The notes: generated by a model from the sequence alone, not told the origin. 64,000 nt of DNA from Candidatus Levyibacteriota bacterium (GCA_016199085.1 JACQHJ010000003.1:38676-102675), one strand, 5' to 3'. Numbered from the stretch's first letter, positions 4,775-45,417 are shown. Program-made: numbers and translations.

Positions 4775-5182
4775 TTATAAATTATTAAATATTCTTTTTA
4801 TAAGATTACTTAAAGTTTCAATAAAACTTTGAATAAAAGATTTCTTGGATAAATTTTCTTTTTGATCATCAACATCAGGCGTAGGAGTTGCTGAATGTGT
4901 AGCAGATTTTGTTGGAGTTGGCTTAACATTAGAAGAATTATCGGAATTAGACTCAACTTTTAATTCGTAAGTTCCGGGACTATCTGCATCCAAGACTTTC
5001 TTCTCCCCATTTGCCTCCACTTCTATATGAGTTTGTACGCTTCCATTTCCCTGAATATTTGTTTCAACTTTAGAATATGAAGAAGCATCACCAGTTTGGA
5101 TATACTGAGAAAAAACCCCAGGTGTAACTAAGAGAAAGAGTAATGAAAAGAAAAGTGTGGTTATTAACGCCCGCCTTTTCAT
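4775..5182 (-). CDS. Secreted hypothetical protein with signal peptide
   Basis: Signal-peptide-like N-terminus. It sits inside the sortase locus. Confidence 0.4.
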   Translation of the reverse strand: MKRRALITTLFFSLLFLLVTPGVFSQYIQTGDASSYSKVETNIQGNGSVQTHIEVEANGEKKVLDADSPGTYELKVESNSDNSSNVKPTPTKSATHSATPTPDVDDQKENLSKKSFIQSFIETLSNLIKRIFNNL

Positions 5183-5221
5183 ATGTTACTTTTTACTCCA
5201 ATATCAAATTTTTGTCAAATT

Positions 5222-5824
5222 TTAGCCTGAAGGGACTGCTGTTACAATTAATCTTTTTTCATCATAAAAACCACTACAGGTATATAGAGTCAGGGTCTCA
5301 TCTTTGGTAGGCTTAATAACTTCAATATTATTTGGATAAACTGCTGTTATTTTATTTACTTTATACCTAAACCATTTATCTTTTGTAAACACATAGATTG
5401 TGTCTCCGAGTTTTACATCTTTTAAGTTTAAAAATAAACCTTCCCTTGCATGCGCAAAAATAACGGTGTTTGACTTATTCCTTGGATTTCCGCTTCCTAA
5501 TCCATAAGAGGCTGTAGTTTCAGAAAGTTCCCAATATCCCTTAACTACTTTTGAGGGAGTTACTTTTAAGTCAATATCTGCCTTTGGGATAAGAATTCTC
5601 ACGGGAATATTTTTGGTTTCTTTTGATTCTAAAAGCTTTTCATTTATAACAATTGGGCTTTTTTCTAAGTTTTTTGAAATTGGAAGTTTATAAGTTAAAA
5701 CAATAAGTGAGGAAAGGATCAGTAAAAGACCCACTAGTTTATATAACAATGGGTGTGAAAAAATATTTTTCTTTGCCTTTTGAAGTTTTTTCAAAAAGGA
5801 GAATCTTTTCTTTGCCTTAGGCAT
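5222..5824 (-). CDS. Sortase family transpeptidase
   Basis: An N-terminal membrane anchor is followed by the catalytic His context IFAHA, the TLxTC motif (TLTLYTCSG) and a downstream conserved Arg (KRLIVTA). Confidence 0.85.
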   Translation of the reverse strand: MPKAKKRFSFLKKLQKAKKNIFSHPLLYKLVGLLLILSSLIVLTYKLPISKNLEKSPIVINEKLLESKETKNIPVRILIPKADIDLKVTPSKVVKGYWELSETTASYGLGSGNPRNKSNTVIFAHAREGLFLNLKDVKLGDTIYVFTKDKWFRYKVNKITAVYPNNIEVIKPTKDETLTLYTCSGFYDEKRLIVTAVPSG

Positions 5825-6284
5825 GTTTTTTGAAAAGTTTAAGACCTAAAATGCTTAAGGAAAGTGCTGCCAGAAGTTGTCCAAATTCAATAAGCATATT
5901 ATTACCGGATCCTGCTGCTGAAAGCCCAAGTACCGCTTGCGTAGGTCCTGATGGAGCACTTGCTCCTCCGTCTGATCTTCCATCGCCTGGTCCTCCACCA
6001 TTTCCACCTCCACCTGGAGTTGTAGTGGGAGTAGGGGTTGGTGCTCCTGTTGTTGGAGTTGGTGTAGGAGTTTCTTGTCCCGGAGTAGGAGTGACTGACG
6101 GCTGTGGTGTGGGAGTACAATCGCAATCTTTTATATTTGTATTTAGCTGGGTCTCTACAACCGTTGTGCTTGTCGCATCTCCTGTAGTTGTTTGCTGATT
6201 CCCTTGGGCAAAAACATCATGGGAAATAAAGGTGAATAAGGAAAGAGCAAAAACTAATATAAATATTTGTGATAAATTCTTCAT
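5817..6284 (-). CDS. Putative sortase substrate: a secreted Pro/Thr-rich protein with a C-terminal hydrophobic segment and a basic tail (…LSAAGSGNNMLIEFGQLLAALSLSILGLKLFKKHA)
   Basis: The likely true start is MKNLSQIFILVFALSLFTFISHDVFA (ATG at 6284). A PT-rich linker is followed by a C-terminal TM and KKHA. The gene overlaps the sortase gene by 8 nt. No canonical LPXTG is present. Confidence 0.55.
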   Translation of the reverse strand: MKNLSQIFILVFALSLFTFISHDVFAQGNQQTTTGDATSTTVVETQLNTNIKDCDCTPTPQPSVTPTPGQETPTPTPTTGAPTPTPTTTPGGGGNGGGPGDGRSDGGASAPSGPTQAVLGLSAAGSGNNMLIEFGQLLAALSLSILGLKLFKKHA

Positions 6285-6330
6285 TTTTAGATTGAGGCAG
6301 TTGAGGCAGTAAGTTTGGCAATTATATGAC

Positions 6331-7479
6331 TTATAAACTAGCTTTGTCAACTGCTAATTTATTAACGTTTATTCCAACGGCTTGTTTCACATTTTTATAC
6401 CCATCTTTTTTTAACAAACCTATCAGTTCCGAGTTAATAAGTGCCGCAGCAGCCGGTCCTTCAAAAATTAATCCTGTAATAAATTGCACAAGAGATGCTC
6501 CCAGTTTTATTTTGTGATATGCGTCTTGCCCGTTAAATACTCCACCGCAGCCAATGATAATTAATTTATCTTTGTAGTTTTTATATGCAAGTTCAATAAG
6601 ACGATTTGAGTCTTCCCAGGTCGGCTTTCCACTGAAATTTCCCACAGGATATTTCGCAGTTTCATTTTTGTCCAAAGTTTTATTATTTCTGTTTTTCTGA
6701 AGGTTTCCAAAAATTACACCATCCATTTTGTTTTTGGAAATAACGTCAAGCAAAGACAGCGCTTCTTTGTCGTTTTTATCAATCGGCATTTTGACAAAAA
6801 TTGGTTTTTTAATATTTAAAGCTTTAATCTTTGTTAAAAGCTCGTCAAGTTTATCAGGATCATAAAAAGTAACCTTTGTATTTAGGTTTGGGCAACTGAT
6901 ATTTAATTCGTAATATTTTGTTTTTAAATCGAATTCTTCGGCTTTTTTAAATGCCGTAACAATATCTTCTACCGCGCTTTCCTGAGTAAACTTTCCCGTA
7001 TTTGTTTGCCCAATGCTAATACCGATTGGAATTTGGAAGTTATAATTTTTAAGCTTATTGCCTACTGCATCAATTCCGTTATTTTTAAATCCTTTGTTAA
7101 CCATTAAGGATTTTGATTTCAAAAGCCTCGCAAGCCTTGGTTTTGGGTTTCCTTCAAAGGCATGGTTTGTAATAGTTCCAACTGTTCCAAAACCAAAACC
7201 TATTGATGGAAGAATCTGCGTAAGAGAGGCGGTATAATCAAATCCTGCAGCAAGACCTATTGGATTTTCAAAAGTTATTCCTTTTATGTTTTGCGAAAGA
7301 ATCGGAGATTTAATATTAAAAATAAAAAAAGCTAGCTTTCTGGTAAGCAGGGTTTTCCCTAAAATCTCTCCATATCTTACTAAAAGATTATGGATTAATT
7401 CGCTGTTAAATAGAAAAATTACCTTAGTTAAAAGATGTTTATAAATATAGTTATAAAACCTAAGCCAGTATTTTTTCAT
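6331..7479 (-). CDS. pyrD: Dihydroorotate dehydrogenase, membrane-anchored quinone-dependent type (class 2)
   Basis: NPIGLAAGFD, FGFGTVGTIT...GNPKPRLARL and ELNISCPN motifs, plus an N-terminal hydrophobic anchor. Confidence 0.8.
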   Translation of the reverse strand: MKKYWLRFYNYIYKHLLTKVIFLFNSELIHNLLVRYGEILGKTLLTRKLAFFIFNIKSPILSQNIKGITFENPIGLAAGFDYTASLTQILPSIGFGFGTVGTITNHAFEGNPKPRLARLLKSKSLMVNKGFKNNGIDAVGNKLKNYNFQIPIGISIGQTNTGKFTQESAVEDIVTAFKKAEEFDLKTKYYELNISCPNLNTKVTFYDPDKLDELLTKIKALNIKKPIFVKMPIDKNDKEALSLLDVISKNKMDGVIFGNLQKNRNNKTLDKNETAKYPVGNFSGKPTWEDSNRLIELAYKNYKDKLIIIGCGGVFNGQDAYHKIKLGASLVQFITGLIFEGPAAAALINSELIGLLKKDGYKNVKQAVGINVNKLAVDKASL

Positions 7480-36465: not shown

Positions 36466-36500
36466 AGTTGTGCTGAGCATACCGCTCTCGACCCATTACA
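36466..36500. repeat. Intergenic repeat copy A (consensus about tTGtGCTGAGCATaCCGgTCTaGAACC), one of three
   Basis: Seen directly by aligning 36468-36500, 37168-37200 and 37706-37740. Confidence 0.5.
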
Positions 36501-36552
36501 TCATTATAGCGGTCGGGCTGAAGCTGAATAAGGCAATATCAGAATATTTAAT

Positions 36553-37165: not shown

Positions 37166-37200
37166 CACGTTTTTGTGCTGAGCATACCGGTCTAGAACCG
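37166..37200. repeat. Intergenic repeat copy B
   Basis: The sequence tgtgctgagcataccggtctagaacc is seen directly. It lies 30-60 bp upstream of the maf start. Confidence 0.5.
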
Positions 37201-37214
37201 TTTTGTCGTTATAA

Positions 37215-37664
37215 CTACTTGTCTAGTTTGAATATGCTTATATCTTCTTCTGATAAATTATCCTTCTCCCAAAATTTGAGCCTGTGCCAAATAGTTTGTC
37301 CTTTCATATCTTTTTGAATTGCGACTACTAGCTTTTTATAGAAATCGTCACTATCGCCGCCTGCTGGTTTTTTGCTAGAATGCGCAGCGATAAATTTATT
37401 AGCTAAGCGAATAACAGTTGCCGAAGCATAAAGGGGAGCATGAGTATAAAGTTCTTCCATGAAATTCTTTTGTCTTTCCTTATCAATCCATCCCTCAAAA
37501 AAACCAATTATATTTTCGAGAAATTTTTTATATTGATCTTCTTTCCTTTCTCTTGCGTAAAGCTCCCGCTCTCTGTTTCTTTCGAATCGATCATTAAGAT
37601 ATGCGCCAATAAGGCCACCCAATCCTAACGATCCGACTAGGGCAATAAGTATTTCAGAATTCAT
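37215..37664 (-). CDS. Hypothetical protein with N-terminal TM
   Basis: ORF only. Confidence 0.4.
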   Translation of the reverse strand: MNSEILIALVGSLGLGGLIGAYLNDRFERNRERELYARERKEDQYKKFLENIIGFFEGWIDKERQKNFMEELYTHAPLYASATVIRLANKFIAAHSSKKPAGGDSDDFYKKLVVAIQKDMKGQTIWHRLKFWEKDNLSEEDISIFKLDK

Positions 37665-37705
37665 TTATTATTAAAACTGCAGACACGCTCATGATTGTGT
37701 TTGTT

Positions 37706-37765
37706 TTTGCTGAGCATCTCGGTTTAGAACCACCTTATCTTTATTGCTATTCTAGATTGCCTACT
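37706..37765. repeat. Intergenic repeat copy C, followed by an att-like TATTCTAG...CCTACT segment
   Basis: The sequence tttgctgagcatctcggtttagaacc...gctattctagattgcctact is seen directly. Confidence 0.5.
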
Positions 37766-38321
37766 CTTGTTTAACGCCTATTGTGCGTTGAGACTCTAAT
37801 TTATTGGCCGCTTCTAAAAAAGATGCTCTATCATTCAAGTCTATATCTTTACTCATTTCCTTAAAACTTTCTAATTGTTCTTTTGTTTGAGCTATTAAGA
37901 TGTCTTTATGTTTTAGATAAAACCACAGACGAAATGCAGTCATGAAGCCTGTAATCTCAATGGTTAACTCTTGATACATCCTAATATCGTCCCAGATAAC
38001 AAATTCGCTTGATGCTGGATTAAATCTCAGTAATTTATCAGGATCACTATTTGCATGTTTAAAAAAATTATAGGGTTCATTAAGTTTTTTTAGCACAAAG
38101 GCCTGTTTCTCTGGTTTTATGTATCCATCCATCTGGGATTTAAAAGATTTTATGCCTGAGGCTTTTCCTATTCCAGATAGTATTTCTTCGGCAGCGCAAG
38201 CAGAAAGGTGAATTATTACAAAATCTCCATAATTAAAAAACAATTTAATAGCATGCTCTAATTCTCTTTTTGCAACATCTAGCTTTGAGACGTTTATGAT
38301 TTTTTTAGTTTCTTCGTCCAT
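37761..38321 (-). CDS. Hypothetical protein
   Basis: ORF only. Confidence 0.4.
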   Translation of the reverse strand: MDEETKKIINVSKLDVAKRELEHAIKLFFNYGDFVIIHLSACAAEEILSGIGKASGIKSFKSQMDGYIKPEKQAFVLKKLNEPYNFFKHANSDPDKLLRFNPASSEFVIWDDIRMYQELTIEITGFMTAFRLWFYLKHKDILIAQTKEQLESFKEMSKDIDLNDRASFLEAANKLESQRTIGVKQE

Positions 38322-38333
38322 ATACTATTCAAT

Positions 38334-38422
38334 CTTGCTGGCTACTTACGAAAAATGTCGAACTTCGTTTCTTAAATAGTCGCTTCGCTCCTACTATTTT
38401 AGAGCTCGGCCTCGCCTCGCTC
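38334..38422. repeat. Inverted repeat X (89 bp), a perfect reverse complement of 43622..43710; begins with the 7-bp core CTTGCTG
   Basis: Direct base-by-base comparison of the two segments. Confidence 0.9.
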
Positions 38423-38439
38423 TTTTGTATTTTTTGCCA

Positions 38440-38900
38440 GAACGAACAAACCTTTTCGCGCGATTTTTATTATACCAAATAACCCGCCCGCCCGACGGAA
38501 AGGAGCGGCGACCCCGCCTTTATGCGAGAGGACTTCCTAGGGGAAGTCTCGCCAGTATCTTTACTTTTTTAAAACTCTTTACAGTCTCTTACTCGCCCCG
38601 CTTCGGCGGGGCTAAATTTCTTCTAACTTAAAACCGCCTGCAGTCAGCGGGGTACTTCCGCTTTTCGCCCCCGCCGATGTTATTCTACCCCCTATTTAGT
38701 TTACGATCTTTGGGATAAACCATATTGGCTCGCCCCGCAAGGTTTCAAGTAAAAGAAGTTTCCGCGGGGCTCGCTTTGGTCGGACTGCCTATACCAAGTC
38801 GGTGGTAAATAAAGTTTTCCTAACGGCAGTTCTCCTTTTAAGGGCGTAATCCTCACGGTGCGGGGGCGGCGGACGCTGCCAATCATTTTTGTCTGAAAAA
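38440..38900 (+). ncRNA. Candidate structured non-coding RNA of unknown class. It is a GC-rich island of about 460 nt in AT-rich DNA with multiple perfect hairpins, including a UUCG tetraloop (GCCCCGC-UUCG-GCGGGGC)
   Basis: There is no plausible ORF; the six-frame ORFs are R-rich artefacts. Hairpins include gacttcc-tagg-ggaagtc, gccccgc-ttcg-gcggggc, and gccccgc...gcggggc. Confidence 0.3.
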
Positions 38901-38988
38901 TTTGACGATAACAGACATTAATAGCTTACAAACTTACGTGAGATAACAGCCTCAAATATACTACATTCAGCCTATTTAATAGTATATC

Positions 38989-39017
38989 TTGACAATAATA
39001 GTAAGATATGTTATAAT
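38989..39017 (+). promoter_or_regulatory. Perfect sigma70-type promoter TTGACA-17 bp-TATAAT, 7 nt upstream of the ATG of the first operon gene (a near-leaderless transcript)
   Basis: TTGACA at 38989-38994, a 17-nt spacer, TATAAT at 39012-39017, and an ATG at 39025. Confidence 0.6.
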
Positions 39018-39024
39018 ACAAGCC

Positions 39025-39243
39025 ATGAAAGAAGATAGAGCACAAAGATTTAAGAGAATCGCCACATATAGAACAAACGAGGTCTTGGATAAGCTCAGGC
39101 TCTTAGGGAATCTCTCCAACAAAGCTAATTATGAATATACAGAGGACGAGGTAAACAAAATATTTTCAGCTATAGAGATTCAGTTAAGAATTGCTAAGGC
39201 TAAATTTTCTTCTTCAAAGAAAAAGAAAGAGTTTTCGCTATGA
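39025..39243 (+). CDS. Small hypothetical protein (72 aa), first gene of the four-gene operon
   Basis: The ORF from the ATG at 39025 overlaps the next gene by 4 nt (ATGA). Confidence 0.45.
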   Translation: MKEDRAQRFKRIATYRTNEVLDKLRLLGNLSNKANYEYTEDEVNKIFSAIEIQLRIAKAKFSSSKKKKEFSL

Positions 39244-39845
39244 GTAATGAAGAATTAACAAATGTTGATATCGTCTTGTACTCGCTTTATTTGCTTGGTG
39301 GTAGTAGAAGAAAGATTTTTACCGAAGATATCGCCAAAAAGTGTTTTGAATTAGCACAAGATCGTTTTTCTTGGAGAAGATATCCAGAATACCCAGATAT
39401 TGAGCCTGCAAGAAAATCTTTAATGGAAGCAAGAAACCAGAAAGACTTAATAAGCGGCAGGGCAGGAGAAGTTAAGGGTACAAAACCATCTGATGGATGG
39501 ATTTTCTCTCCTGAAGGTGTGTTCTGGATAGAAAAAAATAAATCACGTATTGAAAAAGCGCTAGGCAAAAAACAAAAACCTATCAAGAGAACAGAACTTT
39601 CCAAAAAAATTGCCGAGCTTGAATCTTCAAGCGCATTCTTAGAATTTTTGAAAGAAAAGACGTGCAACAATATCAAAGCTTATGAATTCACTGATTTTCT
39701 AAACGTTAGCCTTGATACCCCATCATCAGTAATCAAGAGTAGAATTCAAACTGTTAAGGCTCTTGCAGCATCAGAAAAAAGAGAAAAACTTCTTACATTT
39801 ATTGCGCTTTGCGAAAAAAATTTTTCCAAATTAATTAATAATTAA
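39240..39845 (+). CDS. Hypothetical protein (201 aa), second gene of the operon
   Basis: Translationally coupled to both flanking genes. Confidence 0.5.
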   Translation: MSNEELTNVDIVLYSLYLLGGSRRKIFTEDIAKKCFELAQDRFSWRRYPEYPDIEPARKSLMEARNQKDLISGRAGEVKGTKPSDGWIFSPEGVFWIEKNKSRIEKALGKKQKPIKRTELSKKIAELESSSAFLEFLKEKTCNNIKAYEFTDFLNVSLDTPSSVIKSRIQTVKALAASEKREKLLTFIALCEKNFSKLINN

Positions 39846-39846
39846 C

Positions 39847-42096
39847 ATGAATCCAAATTCTAATATAATTTTTGGCCAACCACAAAAATTTGATATATCT
39901 GATAGATACTTTCTTCAAACAGCTGAGAGCGCAATGAAAGGAGATGTAATAAGGGGGTTAGTTGAATTAATTACCAATGCTGATGACAGTTACGAAGAAG
40001 TTGAGTCAAAAGGATTAACTAGTAGCGGGAAAATACTCATTGAAATAATAAGAAAAAAGCAAGGCAAAAATAGTTTAATTAAGGTCGTTGATAAAGCTGA
40101 AGGAATGAAGCTGGAAGAAATGGTTATTAAGTTAAAAAGGGTTGGGGGGATGACAAGCCATTTTATTGAAAGCAAAGGATTAAAAACGAGAGGATTAATG
40201 GGTAGAGGTAGCAAAGAATGTGTGGTTTTTGGTCCTTTAACTTTCAAATCAATAAAAGACAATATTTATTCTGAAGTTGTTTTAAAAAAACCTGCAATCT
40301 TTATTCCGCAAATCGAAAGACCTGTAACAGAAGTCGACAGAGTAAAGCTAGATATTAAAGGGAATGGAACAGTTGTGGAATTAAAAGTTGAACCACATTT
40401 TCAAATTCCGAGCCATAACTCTTTAGTAGAGAATTTACCAAAATATTACAGTCTGAGGGATATTACATCCAATCCCAAAAGAATAATTGAGTTAAGTGAC
40501 GGTAAAAGATCTGATAGGCTAGTTTACAATCCTAAAAAAGGCACTGTTGTACTAGATGAAGTAATTAATGTTATGGAATATCCTGGCGCGCAGGCTCATC
40601 TCATTCTAATAAAAACGCCTGAATCAATTGAGGTTGAAAGTAATTCTCCTTTTTGGGAAGGTGGAATATTAATTCAAAGCGGGCATGCAGTTCACGGCGT
40701 AACGGGATTCACTAGAGATATCGAGAATAATCCTTATTTTGTACATTATTTTGGAAGATTGGTTTGTACTTATATTGATATTCTTGCAATAGAATATGAA
40801 GAATATGAAAAAAATAATCAAGCGCATACCGCGTTAAACCCATCGAGAATTATCGAACCATTAAGAAAGGAAGGATTATTCTCTAACCATCCCTTTACTA
40901 AGATTTTGTATAGAGAAGCTTCACGGAGAATAAAAAATCTTTTGAAAAAAGACGAGGAACTCTCTACCTCAATGATTAAAGAAATAGAAAATAAAAAAAC
41001 AAAAGATAGACTCAAAAGGCTGGCTGACGCAGTTAGCAGGTTTATTAAAGAAAGGACTGAAGATTTGGAAATAGAAGATGATAACTATCTTTCTGGTTCT
41101 GACATTCCCGTTGGTGGGATGATTGTGATACCTGGTGGACTTAGAGTTCCAATTGGTGAAGAAAAAAGGTTTTATGTTTATGTTAAACCAAAAATACAAC
41201 AGGATAGATTTGTTACGCTTTTTACTCAGTCCAGCGCAATAGCCCTAAGCTCTAAAAAGGAAGAGCTAATTGAAAGGAATGATGGAACTTTTTACGCCCA
41301 GTTCTCTGTAAAAGGAGTTGATTATGTCAATGACGCTATAGTTAAGGTAAATTGGTCGAATATAGAAAATAATGTTCCTGTTTCAGTAATTAAAAAGGAA
41401 GAAGATCATCCATTTATTACTGACTTCTCTTTTGAAAAAAATAAATATAATTTACGTGAAGGTAAACAGAAGGATATTTATTTATTGGCTAAATGGCCTG
41501 ATTTTGTCCACGGATGGGCGGAATGTACTATTGAGACAAACAAAAATGAATTTTTAACAGTTTTGGGTAATAAAACTAGATTAAAATATAAACGATTTAA
41601 CGATGGGACACAGATGGCCATAGGAAAAGTCAAAATATATGGGGTAAAAACGGGAGGCCCAACCATAATTAAAACGTCTATAAATAATAAAACAGTGCAA
41701 ACAGAAATAAATGTTCTTCCAAAATTGGAGTTAGGACATAATATCGAGATCAAATTGGTTGATGAAGAAGCGGGAGCACAGAGAGCAGTTTGGGATGGGG
41801 ACATTTTAAAAATAAATACGAGACATAAAACTATTCATAGATATTCCGGTCCACCACCTGACTATTTAGGACAAGATTCAATTCATTTTCATTTGTTGTT
41901 GGCAGAATTGATAGCAGATAATGTAGCTAGGCGAGTTTTAGAATTAAATGCTGAAAAAAATATACATAAATATCAAGATATGGATATATATGGTTTTTAT
42001 GATATACACAGAAAGTATGTAAATGATTTCTTAGAAGTTGCCCATAACATTCAAATTCCCGATAATGAACTTGTAAATATTGTCCTTAATTCTTAG
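39847..42096 (+). CDS. Large protein (749 aa) with a putative N-terminal GHKL-type (Bergerat-fold, MORC/Hsp90/MutL-like) ATPase domain, then a coiled coil and a beta-rich C-terminal region
   Basis: N-box-like ELITNADDS, G1-box-like VVDKAEGMKLEEM (a degenerate DxGxG), and G2-like TRGLMGRGSK. I recognised nothing in the remainder. Confidence 0.5.
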   Translation: MNPNSNIIFGQPQKFDISDRYFLQTAESAMKGDVIRGLVELITNADDSYEEVESKGLTSSGKILIEIIRKKQGKNSLIKVVDKAEGMKLEEMVIKLKRVGGMTSHFIESKGLKTRGLMGRGSKECVVFGPLTFKSIKDNIYSEVVLKKPAIFIPQIERPVTEVDRVKLDIKGNGTVVELKVEPHFQIPSHNSLVENLPKYYSLRDITSNPKRIIELSDGKRSDRLVYNPKKGTVVLDEVINVMEYPGAQAHLILIKTPESIEVESNSPFWEGGILIQSGHAVHGVTGFTRDIENNPYFVHYFGRLVCTYIDILAIEYEEYEKNNQAHTALNPSRIIEPLRKEGLFSNHPFTKILYREASRRIKNLLKKDEELSTSMIKEIENKKTKDRLKRLADAVSRFIKERTEDLEIEDDNYLSGSDIPVGGMIVIPGGLRVPIGEEKRFYVYVKPKIQQDRFVTLFTQSSAIALSSKKEELIERNDGTFYAQFSVKGVDYVNDAIVKVNWSNIENNVPVSVIKKEEDHPFITDFSFEKNKYNLREGKQKDIYLLAKWPDFVHGWAECTIETNKNEFLTVLGNKTRLKYKRFNDGTQMAIGKVKIYGVKTGGPTIIKTSINNKTVQTEINVLPKLELGHNIEIKLVDEEAGAQRAVWDGDILKINTRHKTIHRYSGPPPDYLGQDSIHFHLLLAELIADNVARRVLELNAEKNIHKYQDMDIYGFYDIHRKYVNDFLEVAHNIQIPDNELVNIVLNS

Positions 42097-42138
42097 CTGT
42101 GAAGAGAGAGTAACGAGGATATAATCCAGTTAGAATTT

Positions 42139-43425
42139 ATGCCAAAGAAATCATACAGAATAGGTGAATTACCTCAAGAGCTTAAAACAAAAAGTGTTTT
42201 TTATTACGTTAACGAAAAGCAAGGTTTAAAAGTAAAATCAAAAGAAGTATTCAAAAATGGAGAAAAAGTTGTTCACTATCCATTTAAAAGGGATGGCACT
42301 CCTAAATATAGAAATATAAGAAAAATTACATATGAAAATATGCCAGAGAATTTACCAAGAGGATTTTATAAAGAATGGACTAAAGGTTATGGTTTTACTC
42401 GTGTATATAATCCCTTAATTTATCGACTTGATGATGCATTAAAAATTCAAGAAGTTATAGTTAGCAAAAACATAATCACAAAATTTGAAAATGGAAAACT
42501 ATATTTGAACTCTGATAAATTAGACTCATCTTATCCCAAAATAGATTTGCTTTTAAAAAAACACAATGTTGAAATTGATAATTTAGCTAATGATATTTTG
42601 TCGAAGTATTTCCCTCAAACTTTCAAGAATAAATCTCAGAAATACATAAAAGGAAGCTTAGCGCAATTTATAGATAAAAATGTAACTCAAATCTCTGATT
42701 TATCAGAAGCAGACACGCAATCCTTATTTGATCTTGCCTCTAGAATTTCAAAAGATGATTTTCTAGAAAGTAAAACCAGTGTATTAAAGACTAAAGAAAA
42801 AATTGAAGAAGTTTATATTGAAGAAGTAATTGAAGAATTTGAAAAATTATTATCTAGAAAGAATTTGACTAAAAATTTAGAAGAAAGATGGCAGAAGTTT
42901 TTTACGCAATATAATTGGATCTTTTCTCAATTATTTTCATTTCCAGTTTTAATTTTTAAAGATAAGGCTTATGTGGGAGGGAAAGGTATAGAAAATGCAA
43001 ATGGGAAAATCTCTGATTTTATCTACAAAAATAAATTAACAAACAATATTGCTTTTATAGAAATTAAGACTCATAAAACTCCAATACTTATTGATAAACC
43101 ATATAGAGGAAATGATGTTTATTCTGTAAGTAAAGACATGAGCGGAGCTGTTAATCAGGTATTAGATCAAAGAGATAATTTTCAGAAAGAATTTTATTCT
43201 CTTAAATCTAAAAGTAAAAATAAGAATTTTGAATCTTACAATTCTAAGTGTATCATTATCACTGGTAGCTTAAGTAAGCTCTCGGAAGAAGAAAAGAAAT
43301 CCTTTGATTTAATGAGAAGCAATAGTAGAGATGTAGACATAATCACATTTGACGAAGTGTTAGAGAAAATTAAAGGACTAGAATCTTTACTTTTTGGTTC
43401 TAAGCAAAAATCTACTGCAAATTAA
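42139..43425 (+). CDS. Protein (428 aa) with a C-terminal DUF4263/Shedu-like PD-(D/E)xK nuclease domain
   Basis: DFIYKNK...IAFIEIKTHK (D...ExK), QVLDQ...Y, and C-terminal IIITGS...DIITFDEV resembling the DUF4263 C-terminus. Confidence 0.45.
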   Translation: MPKKSYRIGELPQELKTKSVFYYVNEKQGLKVKSKEVFKNGEKVVHYPFKRDGTPKYRNIRKITYENMPENLPRGFYKEWTKGYGFTRVYNPLIYRLDDALKIQEVIVSKNIITKFENGKLYLNSDKLDSSYPKIDLLLKKHNVEIDNLANDILSKYFPQTFKNKSQKYIKGSLAQFIDKNVTQISDLSEADTQSLFDLASRISKDDFLESKTSVLKTKEKIEEVYIEEVIEEFEKLLSRKNLTKNLEERWQKFFTQYNWIFSQLFSFPVLIFKDKAYVGGKGIENANGKISDFIYKNKLTNNIAFIEIKTHKTPILIDKPYRGNDVYSVSKDMSGAVNQVLDQRDNFQKEFYSLKSKSKNKNFESYNSKCIIITGSLSKLSEEEKKSFDLMRSNSRDVDIITFDEVLEKIKGLESLLFGSKQKSTAN

Positions 43426-43553: not shown

Positions 43554-43621
43554 TTTGAGTACTTTAAAATTTTTGCGTTTTTCTCCCAAAGACGATTTGG
43601 GAACGAGTCGACAGTTTTTGA

Positions 43622-43710
43622 GCGAGGCGAGGCCGAGCTCTAAAATAGTAGGAGCGAAGCGACTATTTAAGAAACGAAGTTCGACATTTTTCGTAAGTAG
43701 CCAGCAAGCT
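43622..43710. repeat. Inverted repeat X' (reverse complement of 38334..38422)
   Basis: Direct comparison. Confidence 0.9.
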
Positions 43711-43809
43711 AGAATAATTAAACCTACGAGGACCTAAACCCTCCGCCGGAAAACTTTCAGAAAGAACGGCAAATCCGGCCTTTTTGAAATCAGCAGACAG
43801 TCGTCGAAA
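43704..43809. repeat. Inverted repeat Y' (reverse complement of 45245..45349; 93 bp perfect plus an extension with 2 mismatches). It abuts and overlaps X' at the shared core CAGCAAG
   Basis: Direct comparison. Confidence 0.9.
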
Positions 43810-43849
43810 GAAAAAGAAGAGAAAAACGCAAAAATTTAAGAATAAGAAC

Positions 43850-45406
43850 ATGATTAAATACATAGCATACTGTAGGAAATCAACAGATGAACCGGACAGA
43901 CAAATTTTGTCTATTGAAGCTCAAGTTGCCGAACTTGAGGAATTCGCCGCAAAAGAAAATTTGAAAATTGTTTTATTTATTACCGAAAGTAAAACCGCCA
44001 AAGAGCCGGGAAGAGAAAAATTTGCTCAAGTTTTAGAAATGATAGAAAAAGGAGAAGCAAGCGGCATAATCTCCTGGCATCCTGATAGATTAGCCAGAAA
44101 TTCTGTTGATGGCGGAAAGATTATCTATTTACTTGATACCGGAAAACTTTTGGATTTAAAATTTCCCTCTTTTTGGTTTGAGAATACTCCACAAGGAAAA
44201 TTTATGTTATCGATCGCCTTTGGGCAGAGTAAGTATTATGTCGATAATCTTTCCGAAAATGTTAAAAGAGGAAACAGGCAAAAATTGAGACGCGGTGAAT
44301 GGCCTAATCAAGCGCCTTTTGGTTATTTAAATATAAATAAGAAAATCGAAGTTGATAAAAAACGAGCAAGGTTTGTTAAAAAGGCATTTCAACTTTACTC
44401 AACCGGTGCTTATGGTTATGCCGATATCCGCAAATTTTTCACTCAAAACAAAATTTTCAATAAATCAGGCCATAAACTTCACTTAGATAAAATAAAAAAG
44501 ATTTTAACAGACCCTTTTTATTATGGCCTGATGAAGTTTTGCGGCGAATTATACGAAGGAAGCCACCTGCCCCTAATTTCTAAGAAACTTTTTGATAAAT
44601 GCCAAGAAATTGTTAAGCTAAAGAGCAGGAAAGTTAAAAATAATAAACATCTTTTTAATTTCTTGGGAATGATTAAATGCGGCGAGTGTGGCTCTATGAT
44701 TACTGCCGAAAAACATACAAAGATTTACAAAAGAACTAATAGAAGGGTTGAATATGTTTATTACCGCTGCTCCAAAAAGAAAGGTAAATGCTTGCAAAGA
44801 TATATTAGTAAAGAAGAAATTGAGGAACAGATAAGAAATATCCTTTTGCAAGCTTCTTTAACCCAATTCGCCGCCAAAAAGTTTCTTGAATGGGCAGAAA
44901 AAGACATAGCCAAAGAAAAACAACAATCATCAAGCGTTACTTTGGATTACAAAGACCAAATTAAAGATACTGATGAAAAACTAGAGCGGTTACTTGATGG
45001 TTATTTAGATAAGGTTATTTCTCCCGAAGATTACCAAAAGAAAAAGAACGAACTTGTTGATACAAAATCGGTTATTAACTCCAAAATTAAGGATATTTCT
45101 ACAAACGGAGTTGAATGGCTCGAACCTTTTCAAGAATTCGTAAATAACGCACTGCAGTGCGGAAAAATCGCACGGGCAAAAAATACAAACGAAGAATTGG
45201 CATTCTTCGCAAAAACTGTCGGCTCGAACTTCTCTTTACTCAATCGGCGACTGTCGGCTGATTTCAAAAAGGCCGGATTTGCCGTTCTTTCTGAAAGTTT
45301 TCCGGCGGAGGGTTTAGGTCCTCGTAGGTTTAATTATTCTAGCTTGCTGTCGGACTTGGATTCGAACCAAGATTACCAGATTCAGAGTCTGGATGCCTAC
45401 CATTAG
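43850..45406 (+). CDS. Large serine recombinase (resolvase catalytic domain, recombinase domain, zinc ribbon and coiled coil)
   Basis: YCRKSTDEPDRQ...SIEAQ (catalytic Ser context), SWHPDRLARN, recombinase-domain GEWPNQAPFGYLN, and zinc ribbon CGECGS...YYRCSKKKGKC. The start is set at the ATG at 43850, because the upstream part of ORF 43784 lies in the inverted repeat. The last 50 codons are encoded by repeat Y and the antisense of tRNA-Gln. Confidence 0.9.
   Translation: MIKYIAYCRKSTDEPDRQILSIEAQVAELEEFAAKENLKIVLFITESKTAKEPGREKFAQVLEMIEKGEASGIISWHPDRLARNSVDGGKIIYLLDTGKLLDLKFPSFWFENTPQGKFMLSIAFGQSKYYVDNLSENVKRGNRQKLRRGEWPNQAPFGYLNINKKIEVDKKRARFVKKAFQLYSTGAYGYADIRKFFTQNKIFNKSGHKLHLDKIKKILTDPFYYGLMKFCGELYEGSHLPLISKKLFDKCQEIVKLKSRKVKNNKHLFNFLGMIKCGECGSMITAEKHTKIYKRTNRRVEYVYYRCSKKKGKCLQRYISKEEIEEQIRNILLQASLTQFAAKKFLEWAEKDIAKEKQQSSSVTLDYKDQIKDTDEKLERLLDGYLDKVISPEDYQKKKNELVDTKSVINSKIKDISTNGVEWLEPFQEFVNNALQCGKIARAKNTNEELAFFAKTVGSNFSLLNRRLSADFKKAGFAVLSESFPAEGLGPRRFNYSSLLSDLDSNQDYQIQSLDAYH
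45245..45349. repeat. Inverted repeat Y, ending in the core CTTGCTG, which overlaps the 3' end of tRNA-Gln
   Basis: Direct comparison with 43704..43809. Confidence 0.9.
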
Positions 45407-45417
45407 CAGATCCGACA
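45347..45417 (-). tRNA. tRNA-Gln (anticodon CUG), 71 nt, CCA not encoded
   Basis: Manual cloverleaf: acceptor UGUCGGA/UCCGACA (U1:A72), D-stem UGCU/GGCA with loop AAUGGUA, anticodon stem CCAGA/UCUGG with loop CUCUGAA, T-stem CUUGG/CCAAG with loop UUCGAAU, and discriminator G. Confidence 0.8.

Follow-up and report, generated by a model that had tools for sequence, protein, structure and literature searches.

Four genes at the locus

The locus described here lies in a stretch of 64,000 nucleotides (nt) from a Candidatus Levybacteria genome (GCA_016199085.1, JACQHJ010000003.1:38676-102675), referred to as the window, and comprises four open reading frames (ORFs), g1 to g4, which span 39025-43425 on the plus strand (Table 1; positions are counted from the first letter of the window). 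With about even confidence, the locus is read as a composite of two separable and independent units, g1-g3, a module built on a MORC-like GHKL ATPase, and g4, which encodes a type 1 Shedu nuclease that acts autonomously. An earlier reading, made by a model from the DNA alone and called the sequence-only reading here, had described a compact four-gene operon, and the ORFs and their spacing are exactly as it claimed: g1 and g2 share a 4-nt ATGA overlap, g2 and g3 are separated by 1 nt, and g3 and g4 by 42 nt. The promoter that it named is also in place. The region holds 31 promoter-like sites (shuffled expectation, 31.2), and this site is the only perfect match among them. Since its TATAAT ends about 6-7 nt from the ATG of g1, the g1 transcript is probably leaderless. 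No terminator-like site was found between g3 and g4, and both units are probably transcribed from this one strong promoter. An 8-bp inverted repeat (ATATACTA...TAGTATAT) adjoining the -35 box was considered as an operator for g2 and rejected, its right arm not being kept in the closest relative of the locus, L170.

Table 1. Features of the locus and of the island that carries it (window coordinates; aa, amino acids).
Feature	Position	Strand	Remarks
Left boundary, left X repeat	38326-38422	+	attL-like core (TATTCAATCTTGCTG) 38326-38340 plus 82-nt arm
GC-rich non-coding stretch	38423-38943		In the island, outside the conserved module; GC 0.48
Conserved module	38944-42125	+	Promoter, g1-g3 and 29 nt beyond the g3 stop codon; extent set by DNA homology to the closest relative
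Promoter, sigma-70 type	38989-39017	+	TTGACA-17-TATAAT, TG before the -10; 12/12 matches
g1	39025-39243	+	72 aa; ATG start, listed ORF opens at in-frame upstream TTG 38989
g2	39240-39845	+	201 aa
g3	39847-42096	+	749 aa; MORC-like GHKL + S5 ATPase, long helical linker, Ig-like beta-sandwich domains, C-terminal helical domain
Second TATAAT	42120-42125	+	3' module edge, common to L170, 13 nt 5' of the g4 ATG
g4	42139-43425	+	428 aa
Inverted attP-like composite, right X repeat	43620-43820	-	Core 43702-43716
Large serine recombinase	43850-45406	+	Listed ORF from TTG 43784; ATG 43850 fits the domain start
Right boundary	45231-45349	+	104-nt arm plus attR-like core 45335-45349 (TATTCTAGCTTGCTG); 4-nt overlap with the tRNA-Gln 3' end
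tRNA-Gln (CTG)	45346-45417	-	Putative integration target; ARAGORN, Rfam tRNA 58 bits

The g3 protein is a GHKL ATPase of the MORC/MutL/Hsp90 type, an assignment that draws on structural and family-level evidence, with no direct Pfam match. Its GHKL domain is followed by a transducer domain of the S5 fold. The N-terminal motifs quoted in the sequence-only reading are all present in a fold of the MORC type, namely ELITNADDS (N box) at residue 40, VVDKAEGMKLEEM (G1-like) at 80 and GLMGRG (G2-like) at 116. Among 32 homologs (27-66% identity), E40, N44, D46, D82, G86, G116 and G121 are invariant and G119 is kept in at least 90%. The invariance of the key residues in the N, G1 and G2 boxes makes it probable that the ATPase is active. 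The profile searches that had been proposed as a check bore out g4, which matches DUF4263. For the g3 protein of the window, a threshold as loose as E ≤ 1 yields nothing from Pfam, NCBIfam or PADLOC, though 27 of the 32 family members match HATPase_c_3 at E ≤ 0.1 (best 2.3e-6) and 11 match HATPase_c. When the 32 homologs were combined into a profile, it matched TRAP1, Grp94 and Hsp90 in their N-domain, over the N and G1 boxes (E 6e-4). An N-terminal ATPase with a distal domain that could dimerise is the layout of the GHKL clamps Hsp90, MutL and MORC, and by analogy g3 may close into a dimeric clamp on ATP binding, its far end being held by the C-terminal helical domain. Compared with the eukaryotic MORC and SMCHD1 ATPases, g3 shares only 12% sequence identity, its C-terminal domains differ, and it has no CW or hinge domains. 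Neither Pfam nor PADLOC gave a match to SduA_C in g3. A HEPN-like effector at its C terminus was considered and rejected; the window protein has RHKTIH (R-x4-H), the second His of which is not kept in the family consensus. As a separate observation, the structural model of g3 has full-length relatives among giant virus proteins in BFVD (Hokovirus A0A1V0SGC9, E 5.6e-31; Yasminevirus A0A5K0UA26, E 1e-25), and phage RIIA proteins resemble its N-terminal part (BFVD, E about 1e-10).

The constant partner of g3 is g2, which has an N-terminal winged helix-turn-helix (HTH) and a C-terminal helical domain; its profile found nothing significant among PDB sequences. This winged helix might load or tether the clamp on DNA. 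The g1 product is a conserved protein of ~70 aa with the motif RERFKRLA..RTN..L.KLR.LGN.SN...Y.Y.EE.V.KIF, for which Pfam, NCBIfam and PADLOC hold no relatives of known function and PDB no match; it is regarded as an accessory part of the module and may be a small accessory subunit of the complex. A DUF4145-like identity for g1 was dismissed, the Pfam match being weak (E 0.028) and the alignment of the g1 profile with the DUF4145 protein of L170 reaching a probability of only 0.05 in hhalign. No STAS or HTH match was obtained in Pfam for g1-g3. The PADLOC check, also proposed beforehand, recognised g4 as SduA and left g1, g2 and g3 without a match to any family of PADLOC-DB 2.0 at E ≤ 1. Together, the products of g1-g3 would form a complex that recognises or entraps invading DNA.

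By sequence, g4 encodes a canonical Shedu nuclease, SduA, of type 1. It matches SduA_C/DUF4263 (PF14082) with 92.3 bits (cutoff 27; E 4.6e-26; residues 247-408) and 14 SduA models of PADLOC (best PDLC00384, E 2.6e-88, residues 65-424), and its C-terminal 200 residues align to Bacillus cereus SduA (PDB 8TI8) with E 1.6e-36. The PD-(D/E)xK motifs I-IV of B. cereus SduA have been defined as E204, D249, E264/K266 and Q295 (Gu et al., bioRxiv 10.1101/2023.08.10.552793), positions that are occupied in the 8TI8 alignment by E248 (motif I), D293 (II), E308/K310 (III) and Q340 (IV) of g4. A nuclease domain with D...IEIK, QV..Y and IITFDEV had already been noticed in the sequence-only reading, and these motifs are indeed found (ISDFIY at 291, FIEIKT at 306, AVNQVL at 337, IITFDEV at 401) in a domain that scores far above threshold. 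The type 1 assignment follows from an N-terminal region of its own, ~245 residues long. Full-length homologs number in the hundreds (40-69% identity, many phyla), and several are annotated as Shedu immune nuclease. In domain, motifs I-IV, N-terminal region and usual length (~425 aa), g4 agrees with type 1 Shedu, from which it differs in nothing essential; here a MORC-like module precedes it at a distance of 42 nt. Judged from its B. cereus homolog, g4 would be a PD-(D/E)xK nuclease tetramer that is kept inactive by its N-terminal region, freed on infection and then cuts DNA.

Boundaries and distribution of the module

The sequence-only reading had taken the four genes for one coupled system. 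This part of it did not hold, the conserved unit being the promoter with g1-g3 and the fourth gene differing even where g3 is 93% identical. In the closest relative (L170/L171), nucleotide identity is 90% over exactly the span of the module, beginning 45 nt 5' of the -35 box and stopping 29 nt past the g3 stop codon at the common TATAAT; a gene for a 206-aa DUF4145 protein follows there, not Shedu. Other relatives carry other genes downstream of g3: a DUF433/DUF5615 toxin-antitoxin pair and then RuvAB (in a 66% relative), an AAA_15/AAA_21 ATPase with a PD-(D/E)xK protein (63%), and DUF2130 (46%). Conversely, no g3 lies near the three closest SduA homologs examined, which are full-length (69, 67 and 58% identity), and the DNA homology of their loci with the window is confined to the g4 ORF. 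The GC content of g4 is 0.27 vs 0.33-0.34 for g1-g3. The sharp module boundary, the exchange of the fourth gene among relatives, the lone SduA homologs and the GC gap therefore indicate, at the level of sequence, that g4 and g1-g3 have separate histories and that g4 joined the module recently.

The distribution of the module was surveyed in 178 loci taken from GTDB genomes, JGI metagenomes and individual protein look-ups, in which ORFs were called and searched with iterated profiles; clustering at 90% identity and requiring a full-length g3 left 117 non-redundant loci. The conserved unit is g2-g3, with g1 added in some lineages: g2 lies directly 5' of g3 in 105 of the 117, and g1 is present in 37 of the 99 that have room upstream, including all close relatives. 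In 33 loci the next gene downstream of g3 has the same orientation and lies at most 150 nt away, in 26 it has the same orientation but lies further off, and in 33 it is on the opposite strand. Of the 60 loci that have at least 1.2 kb to the left and to the right of the module, 18 (~30%) lack a tightly linked neighbour altogether. Shedu stands behind g3 in just two, the window and L105, out of about 92 informative non-redundant loci; these two are 31% identical in g3, 37% in g2 and 36% in SduA. Beyond Shedu, L105 also encodes a protein of 679 aa (4828-6867) that by eye resembles an ATPase of the OLD or Gabija GajA type; if this is correct, that locus is a defence island as well.

The g3 family is large. 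A profile search of 1.84 billion representatives (50%-identity clusters) returned 879 clusters with E ≤ 1e-30, and relaxing the threshold to E ≤ 1e-10 brought the number to 1399. In the list of the 150 best hits, the full-length members are almost all 720-780 aa long (one has 897), and no nuclease fusion was seen. The hosts belong to many bacterial phyla, including those of the Candidate Phyla Radiation (CPR), and are nearly all metagenome-assembled genomes; the distribution is patchy across more than 25 phyla. Two loci from Bathyarchaeia have partial matches, and tblastn searches with g3 of plasmid and phage collections found nothing.

The position of the module, always 5' of a variable gene and with a -10-like box at its 3' edge just before the downstream ATG, together with the DNA-binding domain of g2, would also suit a transcription controller. 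On this account, g2, g3 and g1 would govern the downstream defence gene in response to stress or infection, as CapK/CapS, CapW and CapH/CapP do, and there is a precedent for it in the GHKL-fold and winged-helix proteins of CapK/CapS, which stand 5' of diverse immune operons (PMC13373217). Such a role is nonetheless quite improbable. CapK is an HTH-STAS-GHKL kinase of the anti-sigma type and CapS a STAS-winged-HTH protein, whereas g3 is a MORC-type clamp ATPase of 750 aa with Ig-like domains, three times larger, and no STAS domain was found in g1-g3; this domain content rules out membership of CapK/CapS. Besides, the module is often without a co-directional downstream gene, and the common TATAAT is seen in one pair of close relatives only, being absent in more distant ones.

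The serine-recombinase island beside tRNA-Gln

The anatomy of the surroundings supports the view that the cassette is carried on a ~7-kb large-serine-recombinase island beside tRNA-Gln. That the genes are cargo between X repeats on a tRNA-linked element had been proposed in the sequence-only reading, and the inverted repeats, the recombinase and a tRNA-Gln directly downstream were all recovered. The X repeats (38326-38422 and 43620-43716) are inverted, 97 nt long and 98% identical, and the arm at 38341-38422 is identical at 82 of 82 positions to the reverse complement of 43620-43701. There are three copies of a 15-nt core, of which the middle one is inverted. When brought to the same orientation, the middle site consists of the left arm of the right site (96/104) and the right arm of the left site (82/82). 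Because it thus joins the inner arms of both ends, the middle site resembles an intact but inverted attP, just 5' of the recombinase gene, and the outer cores resemble the attL and attR sites that would bound a 7-kb element. The recombinase has the domains Resolvase (PF00239, E 2.4e-21), Recombinase (PF07508, E 3e-11) and Zn_ribbon_recom (PF13408, E 5.2e-10), and matches XisF and CcrA/B in NCBIfam below the cutoff. The 3' end of its ORF runs through the attR-like core into the tRNA; the attP-like copy would give a different C-terminal tail.

Between the left boundary and the module lies a non-coding stretch of 520 nt with 48% GC in a genome of 36% GC and with several GC-rich hairpins, which has no homology with L170. 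A structured RNA was considered for this stretch and rejected, there being no Rfam match at E ≤ 1 and folding z values of only -1.65 on the plus and -2.46 on the minus strand. Two minus-strand genes, 37215-37664 (149 aa) and 37761-38321 (186 aa), abut the left end of the island and have no match in Pfam, NCBIfam, PADLOC or PHROG; the latter has its start codon 5 nt from the attL-like core. Further to the left, an intergenic direct repeat of 46 nt occurs in three copies (36467-36512, 37172-37217 and 37704-37749; 74-76% identity to the reference copy), which surround a minus-strand Maf-like gene and a small gene of unknown function and could be a shared promoter or terminator element.

Neighbouring genes, competing readings and known systems

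The genes in the downstream slot include SduA (2 loci), DUF2130 (3), AAA_15 with PDDEXK, DUF4145, an SDH/ClpP-like protease and UvrD-PDDEXK, as well as HEPN_RES_NTD1-RES, KAP NTPase, pP_pnuc_1, PIF1 and DNA methylases; DUF2130 is a PD-(D/E)xK family (PMC3424549). PADLOC recognised type II methyltransferases (3), SduA (2), HEC-01 (2) and AriA (2) among 60 downstream proteins. In loci without g1, the gene directly 5' of g2 encodes PIN/VapC in 8, HARE-HTH in 5 and HTH_17 in 4, and elsewhere DNA methylases or several unknown families. The eight PIN/VapC-g2-g3 loci (L007, L017, L060, L062, L108, L114, L124 and L125) have g3 proteins that are 22-60% identical; in L176 (6680-10268) a small VapB-like gene precedes the PIN gene, and this four-gene arrangement is recurrent. 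Other flanks hold a HindVP/Dcm/Vsr restriction system, IS256-type transposases and MNT-HEPN pairs. Housekeeping genes are found in the slot as well, namely DnaG, Ddl, BioY, inositol monophosphatase and a Na/Ca exchanger (synteny-conserved). A defence-island context for homologs, expected from the sequence-only reading, is therefore borne out in neighbourhoods rich in defence, toxin and restriction-modification genes, with some plain housekeeping neighbours; the overall pattern is that of a mobile module in variable regions rich in conflict genes. In one pair of loci, L024 (3581-4849) and L051 (10255-11523), DUF2130 is 75% and the gene beyond it 86% identical, whereas g3 is only 35% and g2 31% identical. 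Either the DUF2130 block stayed in place while module variants were exchanged in front of it, or the rate of evolution is much higher in the module than in the adjoining gene.

The module could also serve the element or the chromosome, in DNA compaction, segregation or island maintenance, its defence neighbours then merely marking common variable islands. This is improbable. The several loci amid housekeeping genes, the lack of g3 in the 2023 PADLOC models and the absence of the family from the plasmid and phage collections searched accord with it; however, the patchy spread over more than 25 phyla and the variable flanks fit horizontal mobility, and the module repeatedly adjoins restriction-modification, toxin-antitoxin, Shedu, HEC-01 and AriA-like genes. 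In addition, element maintenance is not a general role, since the module occurs in chromosomes without a recognisable element.

The sequence-only reading had not recognised as a named system the pairing of GHKL and DUF4263 behind two small genes on a serine-recombinase element. The pairing itself is in fact known as one fused protein, in paraMORC3 (Iyer et al., 2008, PMC2292703), Shedu type 1D (bioRxiv 10.1101/2023.08.10.552793) and VcSduA (PMC12137116), and in VcSduA both the ATPase and the nuclease are required for defence (PMC12137116). paraMORC3 and VcSduA share with the present locus the defence context and the combination of a MORC-like GHKL ATPase with a nuclease of the Shedu type; they are single polypeptides, whereas g3 and g4 are separate ORFs with a 42-nt gap and separate histories. 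Unlike VcSduA, g3 has a long C-terminal half (Ig-like and helical domains) and needs g2, and g4 keeps an N-terminal domain of its own.

These fused proteins suggest a second reading, in which the locus is a split paraMORC: g1-g3 would be a sensor and motor core, and the downstream gene (Shedu, DUF2130, PD-(D/E)xK, DUF4145, RES or protease) or the upstream one (PIN) an interchangeable effector controlled by the ATPase, as in VcSduA. It is possible, though rated clearly less probable than not. Same-strand nuclease and toxin genes recur at short gaps, the swap takes place at a precise junction 29 nt past the g3 stop codon beside the common TATAAT, two lineages that are 31% identical in g3 both have SduA behind it, near-identical DUF2130 blocks stand behind very different g3 genes, PIN genes lie directly 5' of g2 in 8 non-redundant loci, g1-g3 contain no recognisable effector domain, and the ATPase of VcSduA is required for defence (PMC12137116). 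Set against this, a tightly linked partner is lacking in ~30% of the well-covered loci, in a third of loci the gene after g3 is on the opposite strand, the slot also contains housekeeping genes (DnaG, Ddl, BioY and inositol monophosphatase), the slot genes are whole systems already known to work on their own (full-length type 1 Shedu, a toxin-antitoxin pair, HEC-01 and AriA-like), and the nearest g4 relatives stand without g3 neighbours. A broader and equally tentative form of this idea would make g2-g3, with g1 where present, the core of an undescribed and widespread immune system, in which a MORC-like clamp loaded by the winged helix senses foreign DNA and licenses adjacent, swappable effectors (Shedu, DUF2130, PD-(D/E)xK, PIN, RES and DUF4145). 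If true, the module would correspond, in split and modular form, to VcSduA and would parallel, in prokaryotes, the silencing of invading DNA by eukaryotic MORC.

The composite of two independent units draws on the separable histories, the many lone modules, the slot genes that are complete, known autonomous systems, and the published view that Shedu needs one gene only (bioRxiv 10.1101/2023.08.10.552793), and on these grounds the two activities may be independent. Several observations weigh against it. Many lineages have a nuclease or toxin gene close by on the same strand (gaps of 15-84 nt), and the recurrent close partners are SduA (twice), DUF2130 (3 loci), AAA_15 with PDDEXK, DUF4145, RES, UvrD-PDDEXK and the SDH protease. 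The 75%-identical DUF2130 behind 35%-identical g3 in L024 and L051 argues for a non-random partnership there. No catalytic effector domain was recognised within g1-g3, so that an autonomous output of the module is left unexplained, and in the fused VcSduA a GHKL ATPase controls the Shedu nuclease domain (PMC12137116). Moreover, the defence role of g1-g3 is one that we infer, and some neighbours of the module are plain housekeeping genes.

What looks new is the three-gene module of a small protein, a winged-helix DNA-binding protein and a MORC-like ATPase, not the pairing of GHKL with DUF4263. The winged-HTH and MORC-like module, with g1, has no model match in Pfam, NCBIfam, PADLOC 2.0 or PHROGs, and a search of the literature on bacterial MORC or GHKL defence modules found only fused Shedu, CapK and the 2008 paraMORC work, in which the three-gene module is not described. 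It is best filed under the prokaryotic MORC/paraMORC theme of conflict systems. Prokaryotic MORC and paraMORC1-5 (Iyer, Abhiman and Aravind, 2008) have the same GHKL and S5 domains, a sporadic, mobile spread, and methylase and restriction-fold nuclease neighbours. They are described with superfamily II helicases, methylases and Vsr or restriction-fold nucleases as partners, whereas g3 is constantly paired with a winged-helix protein of ~200 aa, to which a ~70-aa protein is sometimes added.

CPR bacteria are thought to be poor in known defence systems. The Shedu gene of this CPR genome is ordinary; the MORC-like module belongs to a large family of uniform architecture that is spread over many phyla, CPR included. 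The downstream slot amounts to a natural experiment, in which ~90% identical module DNA is followed by different genes. Should the module license the nucleases beside it, the origin of the fused GHKL-Shedu proteins would be explained. Should it be immune in function, the bacterial repertoire would gain a DNA clamp of the MORC type, with consequences for the proposal that MORC silencing in eukaryotes had a prokaryotic origin.

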